Shown here: positions 50,509 through 55,828 of the stretch, piece after piece
Position numbering within the stretch: the first letter of the stretch is position 1
How the letters are laid out: each line of letters begins with the position of its first letter
NCBI GenBank assembly: GCA_964346655.1
Contig: CAYFVP010000126.1
Span: 7,877-71,876, forward strand
Source: an uncultured Thermoplasmatales archaeon
Lineage (GTDB): Archaea; Thermoplasmatota; E2; DHVEG-1
DNA length: 64,000 bases
Direction: 5' to 3'
Notes under the pieces: model-generated
The model's database searches: none
What the model saw: the letters and a program-made list of their open reading frames with translations, nothing else
Told to the model about the DNA's origin: nothing
Program-made: the position numbers and the translations under genes

Positions 50509-51447
50509 ATGAAAACATTTGTAACTGGTGGTGCTGGATTTATTGGCAGCCATTTAGTAGATAAGCTTCTTAGTAGAGGTAACTATGTTACATCTTTTGA
50601 TAATCTTTCTTCTGGGAAAAAAGAATTTTCTACTAAACATTTAAAAAATGACCATTTTAGGTTTGTTGAATCAGATTTATTAGATTTAACACGTTTAAAA
50701 AAAGAAATTAAAAATCACGATGTGATCTTCCATATTGCAGCAAATCCTTTTGTTAGACTTGGTGAAAAACAAACAAAACTTGACTTAGAGCAAGGTGCAA
50801 TTGCGACATACAATTTACTTGAGGCAATGAGGCTTAATAATATAAAAAAAATTGCTTTTTCTTCAAGTAGTGTAGTATATGCAGAAACTCCAGATATTTT
50901 TATACCTGAAACCTATGGTCCAACATTACCTATATCACTCTATGGAGCAAGTAAACTTGCTGCAGAAGGTTTAATTAGTGCTTTTTGTGGAACATTTGAT
51001 TTTCAAGCTTGGATTTTTAGATTTGCAAATGTTATAGGAAGCCGAGGAACTCATGGTGTAATAGTTGATTTTATAAATAAACTAAGGAAAAATCCAAAGC
51101 AACTTGAAATCCTTGGAGATGGTAAACAATGTAAACCATATCTTCATGTCTTAGATATTGTTGATGCAATGCTTTTTGGGTTTGAGCATTCTAAAGATCA
51201 AGTTAATCTTTTTAATATCGGTTGCGATAGTAGCACAACTGTTACTAGAATTGCAGAGATGGTTGTTGATGAAATGGGACTTGATGATGTTGAATTTAAA
51301 TATACAGGTGGTCCTAGAGGTTGGCCAGGCGATGTTCCTCGTTTTCAACTTGATGCAAGTAAAATAAATAAACTTGGTTGGAATGAACATTACACATCTG
51401 ATGAAGCTGTAAGAAAAGCTATAAGAGAATTACTAAATAATCAATAA
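50509..51447 (+). CDS. NAD-dependent sugar-nucleotide epimerase/dehydratase (extended SDR)
   Basis: 312 aa; 'FVTGGAGFIGSHLVDKLL', 'YGASK' catalytic motif. Confidence 0.85.
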   Translation: MKTFVTGGAGFIGSHLVDKLLSRGNYVTSFDNLSSGKKEFSTKHLKNDHFRFVESDLLDLTRLKKEIKNHDVIFHIAANPFVRLGEKQTKLDLEQGAIATYNLLEAMRLNNIKKIAFSSSSVVYAETPDIFIPETYGPTLPISLYGASKLAAEGLISAFCGTFDFQAWIFRFANVIGSRGTHGVIVDFINKLRKNPKQLEILGDGKQCKPYLHVLDIVDAMLFGFEHSKDQVNLFNIGCDSSTTVTRIAEMVVDEMGLDDVEFKYTGGPRGWPGDVPRFQLDASKINKLGWNEHYTSDEAVRKAIRELLNNQ

Positions 51448-51466
51448 TAATTATGAAGGGAAAAAT

Positions 51467-52468
51467 ATGATTATATCACGTTCACCTGTTAGAATCTCAC
51501 TAGGTGGTGGAGGGACAGACCTTCCTTCTTATTATTCAAAATATGGAGGCGCACTTATTGCTGCAGCAATTGACAAATATACTCTTGTCACTGCCCATAC
51601 CCGTTTTGATGATAAAATAAAATTGAATTACTCAAAAACTGAAATTGTAGATTGTATTGAGGAAATAAAGCACAATATTTTTCGAGAAGGTTTAAAACTT
51701 CTTGATATTAAAAAAGGAATTGAACTTACATCTCTTTCGGATATACCTAGTTCTTCAGGTCTTGGAACGTCCGGGAGTTTTACAATTGCTCTTTTAAATG
51801 TAATTCATACATATAAAAAAGATTTTATCTCTCAAAAGCGTCTTGCAGAAGAAGCATGTAAAATAGAAATAGACATACTAAAAGAGCCTATTGGTAAACA
51901 GGATCAGTATATTGCTGCTTTTGGCGGTATTACTTCTTTTAAATTTGCAAAAGATGGATCTGTTACCATTGAACCTGTAAAAATGACTGATGAAGCTCGG
52001 GATGAACTACATAATAATATAATACTGCTGTACACTGGGATTTCTAGATCAGCATCTAAGATTCTAAAAGAACAAAATGAAAAAAGCAAAAAAGACGAGG
52101 GAAACACTATTGAAACTTTACATGAAATAAAAAAAATCGGACTTAAAACAAAAAAAGCATTTGAAAGTGGAGATATTGATAAACTTGGGGAATTTTTAGA
52201 TGAACATTGGAAAATTAAAAAGAATCTTTCCAAAGATATTTCAAATTCTTTTATTGATGAATGCTACATGCATGCAAAGAAAAATGGTGCTTTAGGTGGA
52301 AAAATAATGGGTGCTGGTGGCGGTGGATTTTTTATGTTTTATCATAATGGAAATAATACACAAAAAACAGCATTTATTAAAGAAATGGAAAAAAAAGGTC
52401 TAATTAGAGTAAGGTATAATTTTGATTTTGAAGGATCAAAAATAATTCTAAATATGAAAAATATTTGA
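51467..52468 (+). CDS. hddA: GHMP sugar kinase, D-glycero-D-manno-heptose-7-phosphate kinase (HddA-like)
   Basis: 333 aa; 'MIISRSPVRISLGGGGTDLPSYY' HddA-like N-terminus; GHMP motif 'PSSSGLGTSGSFTIALL'. Confidence 0.75.
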   Translation: MIISRSPVRISLGGGGTDLPSYYSKYGGALIAAAIDKYTLVTAHTRFDDKIKLNYSKTEIVDCIEEIKHNIFREGLKLLDIKKGIELTSLSDIPSSSGLGTSGSFTIALLNVIHTYKKDFISQKRLAEEACKIEIDILKEPIGKQDQYIAAFGGITSFKFAKDGSVTIEPVKMTDEARDELHNNIILLYTGISRSASKILKEQNEKSKKDEGNTIETLHEIKKIGLKTKKAFESGDIDKLGEFLDEHWKIKKNLSKDISNSFIDECYMHAKKNGALGGKIMGAGGGGFFMFYHNGNNTQKTAFIKEMEKKGLIRVRYNFDFEGSKIILNMKNI

Positions 52469-53085
52469 AGAGGATATTTATGGAAAATGAACAGCAAATC
52501 GAACAATATTTTAAAGAAATAAAGGAAATCTGTGATAACATTTCAAGGAAAGATATTGATAGGGTAATAGAACTTTTATTTAATGCTTGGAAAGATGGTA
52601 ATCAAGTTTTTTTCTGTGGAAATGGTGGTAGCGCGGGAACTGCAACTCATTTTATGTGTGATCTTTTTAAGGTAACAATTGTGGAAGGGAAAAAACGATT
52701 TAGAGCTCATTGTTTGAATGATAATATTCCTCTAATGACTGCACTAATTAATGATGTTGGCTTTGACAATCTATTTATTGAGCAGTTAAAAAATCTCTAT
52801 CGTAAAGGAGATATATTGGTATGCTTTAGCGTTCATGGAGGAACAGGTCAAGATAAAGCAGGTTTATGGTCACAGAATTTATTAAAAGCAATGGACTATG
52901 TAAAAAAGAATGGAGGAAAAACAATTGGTTTTGCAGGTTTCGATGGTGGCGCTATGAAAGATATTGCAGATGTATGTGTCATTGTTCCTTATTCAGCAAC
53001 ACCACATGTGGAAGCATTTCACCTCGTTATTGAACATTTAATTGCTTTTAGGCTTAAAGAAAAGATCATGGAATACAAAGATTAA
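52465..53085 (+). CDS. gmhA: SIS-domain sedoheptulose-7-phosphate isomerase (GmhA-like)
   Basis: 206 aa; 'VFFCGNGGSAGTATHFMCDL'. Confidence 0.8.
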   Translation: MKRIFMENEQQIEQYFKEIKEICDNISRKDIDRVIELLFNAWKDGNQVFFCGNGGSAGTATHFMCDLFKVTIVEGKKRFRAHCLNDNIPLMTALINDVGFDNLFIEQLKNLYRKGDILVCFSVHGGTGQDKAGLWSQNLLKAMDYVKKNGGKTIGFAGFDGGAMKDIADVCVIVPYSATPHVEAFHLVIEHLIAFRLKEKIMEYKD

Positions 53086-53086
53086 A

Positions 53087-54350: not shown

Positions 54351-54493
54351 TTAATTTTTACCTTTTTTTAAATTTTGTACAATAGTTGAATTAATAATAT
54401 TGAATCGAAAAAAAGATTATTTTAAAGATATTTTCTCAATTGTGAAATTTTCAAAAGATAATTTTAAATATTTTATTACAATAAAAATATTAA

Positions 54494-55060
54494 TTGTTAA
54501 GGGAAAAAATGAAAAAACAAAAAGTAATATTTGTAATATCTCTAGTAATAATAGCAGTTGGATTAAGTGGATGTTTTGAGGAAAATAAATCAAATCAAAA
54601 TAAAAAATTTGAAACAGTTCCTTTAAAAGACCTAGGCCTAAAAATTGGAGATCTTCCTAGTGATTATATGCAATACTATACTGGAAAAAGATATTTAAGT
54701 GTATTTTCAAATCAATCAAGTGAATCAATAGTTACATGGTTTTCAAAAGGTAATATTTCCAATTTAAAAGATTCTGAGTTGGTAACTTGTGAATTAAATA
54801 AATTTGACACGGCAAGTGATGCAAATCAAAGATATAAAATAACAATAGATTTTTTATTATCAGATCAAAATTATTCTATTATTAATGAATCAATAAATAG
54901 AATCGGGGATGAATCAAAAGACTTATCAAAAGAGGGTTTTACAGATCTTCTTACATTCAGAATATCAAATATTATTGTTGTTATGAGCTCCTATAATTAT
55001 TCATTTACTTTTAATTTAGCCAAAATTGTGGAACAAAGAATCTATGATAACGCTTTTTAA
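54494..55060 (+). CDS. Hypothetical secreted lipoprotein-like protein
   Basis: 188 aa; signal peptide + 'LSGCFEEN'. Confidence 0.4.
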   Translation: MLREKMKKQKVIFVISLVIIAVGLSGCFEENKSNQNKKFETVPLKDLGLKIGDLPSDYMQYYTGKRYLSVFSNQSSESIVTWFSKGNISNLKDSELVTCELNKFDTASDANQRYKITIDFLLSDQNYSIINESINRIGDESKDLSKEGFTDLLTFRISNIIVVMSSYNYSFTFNLAKIVEQRIYDNAF

Positions 55061-55135
55061 TTGCTTATTTTTCATAAACTAGTTTAAAGTATAGGAAAAC
55101 TTTTAACAAATTATTATTTTACGCTTAATTGCCCT

Positions 55136-55828
55136 ATGCAAATGGTAATATTATGTGGAGGACTTGCAACAAGACTTGGTAACCTTGTGAAAGATACACC
55201 TAAATCAATGATAAAAATTGAAGGTAAACCATTTCTAGAATACCAAATCGAGAATTTAAAAAATAATTCAATTAAAGATATAGTTTTATGTGTTGGTCAT
55301 TTATCAGAAAAAATAAAAGATTATTTTGAGAACGGAAAAAAGTTTGGTGTCAATATTAGATATAGTAATGATGGTAAAAAACTTCTTGGACCAATTGGTG
55401 CATTAAAAAATGCTCAATTGTTTCTTGAAGATGTTTTTTTTATAATGTATGGAGATTCCTATTTATCTTTTGATTTTCAAAAAGTCTATTTGCATTTTCT
55501 AAAAGAAAACAAACTCGGACTTATGGTTGTTTATAAAAACTATGATAAATACGATAAGAGTAATTTAATTGTAAAAAATAATTTGGTTACCGGTTATAAT
55601 GAATATAATAAAGCAGAAGAAATGAAATATATTGATTATGGAGCATCAATATTAAGAAAAAAATCTTTAGATTTGATACCAAAAAACTTATATTATTCTA
55701 CAGGACAATTCTTTAATGAATTAATAAAAATTCAAGAGCTTCTTGCTTATGAAGTAAAAGAAAGATTTTATCATATTGGCACACTTAATGCTCTTGAAGA
55801 ATTCAGAACCTTTATTAGAAGTAAATGA
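55136..55828 (+). CDS. hddC: Short sugar-1-phosphate nucleotidyltransferase (heptose-1-P guanylyl/nucleotidyltransferase HddC-like by context)
   Basis: 230 aa; 'MQMVILCGGLATRLGNLVKDTPKSMIKIEGKPFLEYQIENLK'. Confidence 0.65.
   Translation: MQMVILCGGLATRLGNLVKDTPKSMIKIEGKPFLEYQIENLKNNSIKDIVLCVGHLSEKIKDYFENGKKFGVNIRYSNDGKKLLGPIGALKNAQLFLEDVFFIMYGDSYLSFDFQKVYLHFLKENKLGLMVVYKNYDKYDKSNLIVKNNLVTGYNEYNKAEEMKYIDYGASILRKKSLDLIPKNLYYSTGQFFNELIKIQELLAYEVKERFYHIGTLNALEEFRTFIRSK

Follow-up and report, generated by a model that had tools for sequence, protein, structure and literature searches.

The window analysed here, a 64-kb stretch of DNA from a Thermoplasmata archaeon, carries a cluster of genes in which six co-directional members resemble enzymes of heptose activation; coordinates in this cluster refer to the plus strand unless stated otherwise. 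They encode a short-chain dehydrogenase/reductase (SDR) epimerase (50509-51447; Pfam Epimerase, 1e-46), a GHMP kinase of the HddA type (51467-52468; NCBIfam HddA, 183 bits, E 1e-53), a GmhA-like SIS isomerase (52480-53085; Pfam SIS_2 and the NCBIfam GmhA models, then DiaA), a HAD-IIIA phosphatase of the GmhB type (53087-53680; NF006506, 153 bits), a transaldolase (TAL; 53682-54350; Pfam TAL_FSA, 9e-43), and an HddC-like sugar-1-phosphate nucleotidyltransferase (NTase; 55136-55828; NTP_transferase, HddC 102 bits). Families were assigned by Pfam and NCBIfam profile matches, and sequence matches in the structure database (PDB) were used for the nearest characterised relatives. The six genes had been named in an initial annotation made from the sequence alone, and the open reading frame (ORF) calls and the profiles place all of them, in the same direction, where it had put them. 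We propose that the region is a self-contained cassette leading from central metabolites to a heptose activated with guanosine diphosphate (GDP), which would enter a cell-surface glycan of this archaeon; from the sequence evidence, the probability of this reading is estimated at about 0.7.

The highest-scoring NCBIfam model of the kinase is HddA (182.7 bits), followed by fucokinase with 112 bits. In the PDB, 3k85, 4usk/4usm, and 4n3o match it best (E 1e-45 to 1e-39), followed by fucokinase at 1e-18 and galactokinase at 1e-12. The best-matching entries were all deposited as heptose kinases or putative sugar kinases. The 4usk/4usm entries are labelled as a putative sugar kinase and 4n3o as a putative heptose 7-phosphate kinase; 4usk is WcbL of B. 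pseudomallei. Most likely, the window protein is a heptose-7-phosphate 1-kinase of the HddA type, for which the alpha anomer is predicted. The phosphatase aligns with E. coli GmhB (3l8e, E 4e-31), including the DRDG motif with its DxD nucleophile and the CxH...CxC zinc loop, the Zn-binding insert that had been read in it earlier. It passes the domain cut-offs TIGR01656 and TIGR01662 (HAD-IIIA, histidinol-phosphatase) and narrowly misses the GmhB equivalog NF006506 (153 vs 178 bits); by sequence, it is a good GmhB of the heptose-1,7-bisphosphate 7-phosphatase type. For the NTase, HddC is the best NCBIfam model (102 bits), MurU is next (94 bits), and the PDB matches are weak and mixed; it is probably an HddC-like guanylyltransferase. 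The assignment to the HddA/HddC route (alpha, with a GHMP kinase) in the initial annotation holds: the window has all four enzyme types, and the characterised proteins closest to them are enzymes of heptose metabolism. The HldE-type (beta) pathway was rejected, since PfkB kinase and cytidylyltransferase domains of that type were found neither in the cluster genes nor in the other window ORFs scanned.

The isomerase is matched by the GmhA models of NCBIfam (TIGR00441), followed by DiaA, and its top PDB matches are phosphoheptose isomerases. It lacks, nevertheless, the canonical GmhA signature, which combines an H-E-Q-H tetrad with a short STSGxS phosphate loop. At the positions of the B. pseudomallei GmhA tetrad H64/E68/Q175/H183, the window protein has H-D-E-H, and the six residues of the canonical STSGKS loop correspond to 15 residues, SVHGGTGQDKAGLWS. 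The H-D-E-H tetrad and a loop of 10-15 amino acids (aa) are common to 54 of the 57 cassette homologues, the window protein included, and for this reason the isomerase is placed in a distinct GmhA-like subfamily. What had been annotated simply as GmhA can thus be kept as an SIS_2 protein with GmhA-type nearest matches, but not as a canonical member.

The transaldolase can be aligned over its full length with those of T. maritima, B. subtilis, and T. acidophilum (E 1e-40 to 1e-35). It retains D6, N28, E59, K84, N108, T110, S130, F132, R135, S167, and R169, and with them the classical signature (D6, E60, K86, T110, and F132 of T. acidophilum; phosphate-binding R135, S167, and R169). The signature is intact in 48 of 49 cassette homologues, the 49th being without only the D6 column in the alignment. 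This protein had been called a transaldolase/F6P-aldolase, and only the first half of the name was retained. In fructose-6-phosphate aldolase (FSA) of E. coli, Q59 and Y131 replace the catalytic Glu and Phe; E59 and F132 of the window protein are of the Glu/Phe transaldolase type, not Gln/Tyr, and FSA identity was rejected. In the PDB search with the window TAL, FSA structures gave 55-60 bits vs 126-141 bits for the best transaldolases. By its residues TAL is therefore a classical transaldolase (EC 2.2.1.2), and it is the predicted source of sedoheptulose-7-phosphate.

The SDR protein scores 322 bits to 3EHE of A. fulgidus and 305 bits to PhGal4E_1 of P. horikoshii (8RDG). It keeps P80, R83, Y145, K149, H182, and the guanine-stacking Trp within RGW(K/P)GDV at the same positions as PhGal4E_1. 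Dehydratases carry a Thr-Asp-Glu motif where this SDR has SSSSVVY. A 4,6-dehydratase was rejected because of this sequence at the motif position and the end-to-end alignment with a characterised 4-epimerase; the scores are also far under the GDP-mannose and dTDP-glucose dehydratase cut-offs. The archaeal GDP-Gal4E subgroup, to which the SDR is assigned by sequence, consists of promiscuous, GDP-preferring sugar 4-epimerases, in which P80, R83, Y145, H182, and a Trp that stacks on the guanine are the key positions (PMC12171764). Its characterised enzymes were studied on GDP-L-fucose, GDP-glucose, and UDP-glucose, and that paper does not name the physiological substrate. Membership in a GDP-preferring subgroup makes GDP the likely nucleotide carrier, and the end product is probably the C4 epimer rather than plain D-glycero-D-manno-heptose. 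Thus, the nucleotide-activated heptose pathway that had been proposed earlier is supported by the enzyme set, but a plain D-glycero-D-manno product is improbable given the subgroup of the SDR.

The recurrence of this gene set was analysed in loci found through the kinase. A genome scan gave 11 loci, and a metagenome scan with the kinase alignment gave 80 further loci, in which the kinase identity is 48-86%. Linkage was counted only in the 28 loci whose kinase gene is flanked by 5 kb or more on each side, partners being scored up to 8 kb away and the epimerase being defined as an SDR homologue with at least 40% identity. TAL, a gmhA-like gene, and the NTase gene were each found in 26 of these loci, gmhB in 25, the epimerase in 24, and an oxidoreductase of the Gfo/Idh/MocA family (GFO) in 15. 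When kinases are clustered at 70% identity, the 28 loci fall into 13 lineages, and TAL is present in 12 of them. Among the loci with both gmhA and gmhB, TAL is found in 45 of 52; of the seven without it, six are contigs that break off shortly after gmhB. The genome-scan loci with TAL a few kb from kinase/gmhA/gmhB belong to Thermoplasmata (4), Ignavibacteria (1), Zambryskibacteria (1), and Saccharibacteria (3), and the cassette TALs are of at least three subtypes. Because relatives carry this gene set again, chance falls far short of explaining the arrangement, and by its linkage TAL is a core member of the cassette rather than a passenger. Kinase homologues with 74-91% identity number hundreds in metagenomes. 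An identical kinase gene sequence is present on contigs of GCA_012975005.1 and of run ERR2564004, and the nearest named kinase relatives (83% identity) are from 'Thermoplasmata archaeon B24_G9' and 'Thermoplasmatales archaeon SG8-52-3'. We take the SG8-52 bins to be Marine Benthic Group D (Thermoprofundales).

Gene fusions join the same partners. One locus of a bacterium of the Candidate Phyla Radiation (CPR), L011, encodes a 458-aa protein with TAL_FSA and SIS_2 domains, in which H-D-E-H was read by eye. With this protein as a database query, the best 120 clusters (90% identity) were inspected; among them, at least 57 are TAL+SIS_2 proteins (PF00923+PF13580), with Vicinamibacterales, Bdellovibrionota, and soil metagenome among the sources, three are HAD+SIS+TAL proteins, and four are HAD+TAL proteins. 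Further fused ORFs in the locus set are NTase-SIS (L058, L074, L081), SIS-HAD (L037), and HAD-TAL (L069). The earlier suggestion of an operon that makes its own sedoheptulose-7-phosphate gains strong support from the synteny across domains (26/28 loci) and from the TAL-SIS, HAD-SIS-TAL, HAD-TAL, and GmhB-TAL fusions. A 554-aa HAD+transaldolase fusion, P0150, was also noted among proteins assigned to a eukaryote (eukprot s1_g1457.t1); either the set is contaminated, or part of the cassette may exist in a eukaryote too.

In one archaeal locus, L017 (15183-17025 of a 230-kb contig), gmhA, TAL, and gmhB stand together in a different position, after a family-2 glycosyltransferase (GT2) gene. The gmhA, TAL, and gmhB products of this locus are 63, 37, and 34% identical to those of the window, and the kinase, SDR, and NTase are 80, 73, and 61% identical. 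This arrangement indicates module exchange, and since the three genes co-vary in position and type, TAL can be said to travel with the heptose genes.

The cassette is also found in cultured bacteria. Plasmid 3 of Lawsonia intracellularis carries, in this order, genes for SIS, HAD-IIIA, and transaldolase proteins, then four others, and finally those for a 'galactokinase' and a nucleotidyltransferase; the Lawsonia kinase homologue scores 178 bits against the HddA model. On pRCCGE525c of Rhizobium jaguaris, the order is SDR..GFO-kinase-NTase-gmhA-gmhB-TAL. The Prokaryotic Genome Annotation Pipeline (PGAP) gives only generic labels to the cassette genes of both. Some bacterial loci contain additional genes. 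In two CPR loci (L009:5366-7372 and L011:5441-7417), gmhB-kinase is immediately preceded by a gene for a 660-aa fusion of GFO_IDH_MocA with an FAD oxidoreductase of the DAO type, and in Rhizobium sp. TAL182 (L096) the kinase is followed by separate NAD(P)- and FAD-dependent oxidoreductase genes. A protein with a 'lysylphosphatidylglycerol synthase transmembrane domain' is encoded near the cassette in Lawsonia (L094:3302-4285) and Rhizobium (L096:4132-5091), which hints at a membrane-linked acceptor or a flippase step.

In the proposed route, TAL would convert fructose-6-phosphate and erythrose-4-phosphate to sedoheptulose-7-phosphate and glyceraldehyde-3-phosphate. The GmhA-like isomerase would then give an aldoheptose-7-phosphate, D-glycero-D-manno by analogy; the HddA-type kinase would form the alpha-1,7-bisphosphate, GmhB would remove the 7-phosphate, and the HddC-like transferase would add GMP from GTP. 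Finally, the GDP-sugar 4-epimerase would invert C4, giving a heptose of the D-glycero-D-talo type. Three downstream genes of sugar modification, the GT2, and a glycerol-phosphate module would provide the other parts and the assembly of the same glycan. The sequence data show the gene content, the catalytic residues, the nearest characterised relatives, the conserved linkage, and the domain fusions; we infer the substrates, products, nucleotide, and stereochemistry by analogy with the GmhA/HddA/GmhB/HddC route, which was reportedly characterised by Kneidinger et al. in 2001 and in later work on C. jejuni and B. pseudomallei. The C. jejuni modifications are summarised in PMC9978623.

Several points weigh against this proposal. 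None of the heptose-pathway proteins of the window reaches its NCBIfam equivalog score. The kinase (182.7 bits) is far under the HddA cut-off of 600 (NF049969), the isomerase has 100 bits with TIGR00441 vs 209, TAL has 174 bits with TIGR00875 vs 246, and the NTase has 102 bits with HddC vs 300, with MurU nearly equal, so that homology does not set the two specificities apart. Two of the four catalytic or metal positions of the isomerase and its phosphate loop depart from GmhA, which bears on the stereochemistry of the product. The epimerase subgroup is promiscuous in vitro (PMC12171764), and another GDP-sugar of the same glycan is a possible substrate. A pentose phosphate pathway whose non-oxidative part is near-complete has been reported for metagenome-assembled genomes of Thermoprofundales (PMC6461988); therefore, a transketolase could supply sedoheptulose-7-phosphate, and TAL might double as a housekeeping copy. 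In addition, T-runs are present after TAL and after an ORF of 183 codons that lies between TAL and the NTase gene, and AT-rich stretches precede this ORF and the NTase gene. These features suggest that the genes are expressed as more than one transcript, possibly two or three.

The departures of the isomerase lead to the alternative that the product is another activated sugar. It might be a different heptose stereoisomer formed by the H-D-E-H isomerase or, more remotely, an eight-carbon sugar, in which case TAL would use ribose-5-phosphate as the acceptor and the enlarged phosphate loop would fit octulose-8-phosphate. The replacement of E by D and of Q by E in the tetrad and the loop of 10-15 aa instead of 6, conserved as described above, are in agreement with this, as is the frequent linkage of the GFO oxidoreductase (15/28 loci). 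A dedicated TAL is present even in Rhizobium, where a complete pentose phosphate pathway is expected and such an enzyme is puzzling. GmhA-like isomerases whose products have other configurations are also reported from hygromycin B biosynthesis (Tang et al. 2018, PNAS). Nevertheless, at least three TAL subtypes were recruited with the catalytic and phosphate-binding signature unchanged, which argues for a generic rather than a specialised transaldolase reaction, and the kinase, isomerase, and phosphatase all have as their closest characterised relatives enzymes that act on D-glycero-D-manno-heptose phosphates. As for the octose, we know of no such sugar in nucleoside diphosphate (NDP) form. On balance, another activated sugar is considered an unlikely product.

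It is improbable that TAL is a housekeeping pentose-phosphate enzyme that stands in the operon by coincidence. The linkage is retained in 12 of 13 kinase lineages and in two domains of life, fusions to SIS and HAD domains are frequent, and in L017 the TAL type tracks the type of gmhA and gmhB, not the host. Moreover, the window TAL shares no more than 37-41% identity with the transaldolases of T. acidophilum and T. maritima, between which the identity is 61%. These facts outweigh those in favour of a housekeeping role, namely that TAL is classical, with intact catalytic residues, that no second transaldolase was detected among the ORFs scanned in the 64-kb window, and that the non-oxidative pentose phosphate pathway has been reported in Thermoprofundales (PMC6461988). 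A hexose version of the route can also be drawn, in which fructose-6-phosphate is isomerised to mannose-6-phosphate and the kinase and HAD enzyme replace phosphomannomutase, giving GDP-mannose or its 4-epimer GDP-talose. SIS-family phosphohexose isomerases do exist in archaea; the kinase, isomerase, and NTase are all under the equivalog cut-offs; and PhGal4E_1 accepts GDP-hexoses (PMC12171764). But a conserved and often fused TAL would be purposeless here, because fructose-6-phosphate is abundant; the isomerase matches only GmhA and DiaA-type SIS_2 proteins, and the kinase has E 1e-45 to heptose kinases vs 1e-12 to galactokinase. The hexose version is thus hardly credible.

The GDP-heptose cassette remains the preferred reading of the window. 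A bolder generalisation, which we offer only tentatively and at less than even odds, is that the cassette may represent a widespread self-feeding sugar-nucleotide module, carried by archaea, CPR bacteria, soil bacteria, Lawsonia, and Rhizobium. A committed TAL would come first, the H-D-E-H isomerase would set the configuration, and the 4-epimerase would lead to an undescribed GDP-heptose (e.g., D-glycero-D-talo) or another higher-carbon sugar. If this is true, the physiological substrate that has been missing for the 'promiscuous' GDP-Gal4E enzymes of archaea would be GDP-heptose.

The junctions between the genes required some correction. Public gene calls on the identical contig and the sequence itself indicate that gmhA starts with ATG at 52480, with GAGG 8 nt upstream, and gmhB with ATG at 53087. 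The TTG starts at 52465 and 53042 in the ORF list are over-extensions, and the overlaps that they produced (4 nt for kinase/gmhA and 44 nt for gmhA/gmhB) were rejected. The initial annotation had several genes overlapping by 4 nt; such an overlap is confirmed for the NTase and acetyltransferase genes (ATGA, 55825-55828) but not for any other pair. The gaps between gmhA and gmhB and between gmhB and TAL are 1 nt each, and the aminotransferase and dehydrogenase genes further downstream overlap by 20 nt. TAL had been placed correctly between gmhB and hddC, but the ORF at the same junction had been missed. It encodes a hypothetical 183-aa protein (54509-55060, plus strand), in which ...SGC comes after a hydrophobic segment at the N-terminus and for which Pfam and NCBIfam searches gave no match. 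This ORF is missing from L003, and other genes take its place in L004 and L005; it was rejected as a pathway member, being not conserved among related loci. The TAL-NTase junction is therefore variable in the window, L004, and L005. In L005 (6618-8365), a radical-SAM gene lies between TAL and the NTase gene, and after it comes a duplicate of the 3' part of TAL (111 codons), which looks like an insertion footprint.

The glycan cluster extends beyond the 50509-55828 region and continues in the same direction to 61038, with a convergent TagF-like gene reaching 62280. The NTase gene is followed by genes of a hexapeptide-repeat acetyltransferase of the NeuD/PglB/VioB type (55825-56322; Pfam and NCBIfam), a DegT/DnrJ/EryC1 sugar aminotransferase (56325-57422; Pfam 1.5e-111; PseC 254 bits, below the cut-off), and a Gfo/Idh/MocA sugar dehydrogenase (57403-58374; 186 bits with NF040723, archaeal UDP-GlcNAc 3-dehydrogenase, at a cut-off of 450). 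The acetyltransferase gene adjoins the NTase gene in L003, L004, L016, and L017 too. The trio at 55825-58374 resembles the route from UDP-GlcNAc to a 2,3-diacetamido-sugar, as in Methanococcus and Pseudomonas WbpB/E/D. It might instead modify the heptose, given that a GFO-family gene is found near the kinase in 15 of 28 loci. Next is the GT2 gene (58415-59209; Pfam Glycos_transf_2, 7e-26), which is conserved in L003, L017, L019, and L032. The cluster is closed at 59291-62280 by a second nucleotidyltransferase (59291-59995), GpsA, an NAD(P)H glycerol-3-phosphate dehydrogenase of the bacterial type (60001-61038), which passes subfamily cut-offs (NF000942, 263 vs 257; NF000940, 205 vs 202), and, on the minus strand, a glycerophosphotransferase of the CDP-glycerol TagF/TarF family (61027-62280; Glyphos_transf 4e-35; TarF 63 bits, far under the cut-off). 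This composition suggests a teichoic-acid-like decoration with sn-glycerol-3-phosphate in an archaeon with glycerol-1-phosphate membrane lipids. A 390-aa ORF at 62387-63559 has no family match; in L007 and L019, relatives with 52-62% identity stand beside the heptose genes or the GT2 gene, and it may be an unrecognised glycan-assembly protein.

Upstream of the SDR gene lies a gene of a cold-shock-domain (CSD) protein (50078-50269, plus strand; PF00313, gene call on the identical contig). The order orf229(-)/CSD/SDR is also found in the Thermoplasmata loci L004, L007, L017, and L038, so the cold-shock gene is conserved upstream context outside the pathway. The stretch directly upstream of the glycan cluster (27687-49184) encodes a series of secreted or surface proteins, among them peptidases of the C25 (gingipain-like) and C10 families, an M14 carboxypeptidase that also has a NosD-like domain, and large proteins of the FG-GAP/PKD and PQQ-beta-propeller/PKD types; they are plausible carriers of the glycan. 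Aldehyde:ferredoxin oxidoreductase, Hdr/FlpD-like proteins, and ELP3 are encoded elsewhere in the window, which, with the secreted C25, C10, and M14 peptidases, fits the lifestyle of an anaerobic, protein-degrading sediment archaeon. The G+C content of the AT-rich window is 24-41% as a whole and 26-31% across the cluster, and tRNA and Rfam scans of its 64 kb gave no match. A gene of the phage integrase family is located at 80-1384; the stretch 80-5745 has 26-28% G+C and is followed by a block of 36-41% (6-26 kb), so it may be an integrated element or an island boundary.

In the open-access literature searched, no link between transaldolase and heptose genes, no heptose in archaeal glycans, and no archaeal HddA was found, and we know of no archaeal glycan with heptose. 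The cassette is missed by curated models; the distinct isomerase subfamily, in particular, is left by them as 'SIS domain-containing protein'. The cluster offers sequence-level evidence that an abundant group of sediment archaea decorates its surface with heptose. Transaldolase, usually seen as a pure enzyme of central metabolism, emerges in many phyla as a regular member, often in fused form, of a sugar-nucleotide pathway, and the recently described promiscuous GDP-sugar 4-epimerases would gain a plausible natural substrate. The cultured carriers Rhizobium jaguaris and Lawsonia intracellularis open the hypothesis to direct tests. As NDP-heptoses are innate-immune agonists, a hitherto unrecognised heptose route in Lawsonia, a pig gut pathogen, may also matter for host interaction.

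The window contains one ordinary copy of the cassette, whose logic is known from the GDP-alpha-heptose route and in which the membership of TAL and the epimerase is new. The GDP-alpha-heptose pathway (GmhA/HddA/GmhB/HddC) uses the same four enzyme families and reaction logic. Here, however, TAL and a GDP-sugar 4-epimerase are core members, whereas to our knowledge classical heptose clusters contain no transaldolase; canonical GmhA has H-E-Q-H, whereas the cassette isomerase has H-D-E-H and a longer loop. The beta-heptose pathway (GmhA, HldE or HldA/HldC, GmhB) likewise starts from sedoheptulose-7-phosphate and includes the GmhA and GmhB steps, but it employs a PfkB-type kinase and a cytidylyltransferase fold and yields the beta anomer, in contrast to the GHMP kinase and Rossmann-type NTP_transferase (alpha) of the window. 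According to PMC11461863, which summarises Tang et al. 2024, the ADP/CDP/UDP-beta-D-manno-heptose pathway has been reported across kingdoms, archaea included, which shows that NDP-heptoses can be made by archaea. The initial annotation had noted that heptose-containing glycans are rarely documented in archaea; the cassette itself is not peculiar to archaea, being found in bacteria too.

The epimerase is alike in sequence and key residues to the GDP-Gal4E enzymes (PhGal4E_1 8RDG/8RDH, A. fulgidus 3EHE, P. calidifontis 3AW9); it differs in that its gene heads a heptose operon and that its homologues accompany the cassette in 24 of 28 loci. With the classical small transaldolases (T. maritima 1VPX, B. 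subtilis 3R8R, T. acidophilum 3S0C), the window TAL shares the Schiff-base Lys, the Glu, the Phe, and the phosphate-binding Arg/Ser, but it lies inside a sugar-nucleotide pathway and not beside a transketolase, and is fused elsewhere. The Lawsonia cassette TAL passes the cut-off of the Staphylococcus-type transaldolase TIGR02134 (343 vs 282). Bifunctional fusions of transaldolase and phosphoglucose isomerase are known, and they likewise join TAL to a sugar-phosphate isomerase of the SIS fold; unlike in those proteins, the SIS part here is GmhA-like SIS_2, with H-D-E-H in L011, and is sometimes accompanied by a GmhB-like HAD domain.

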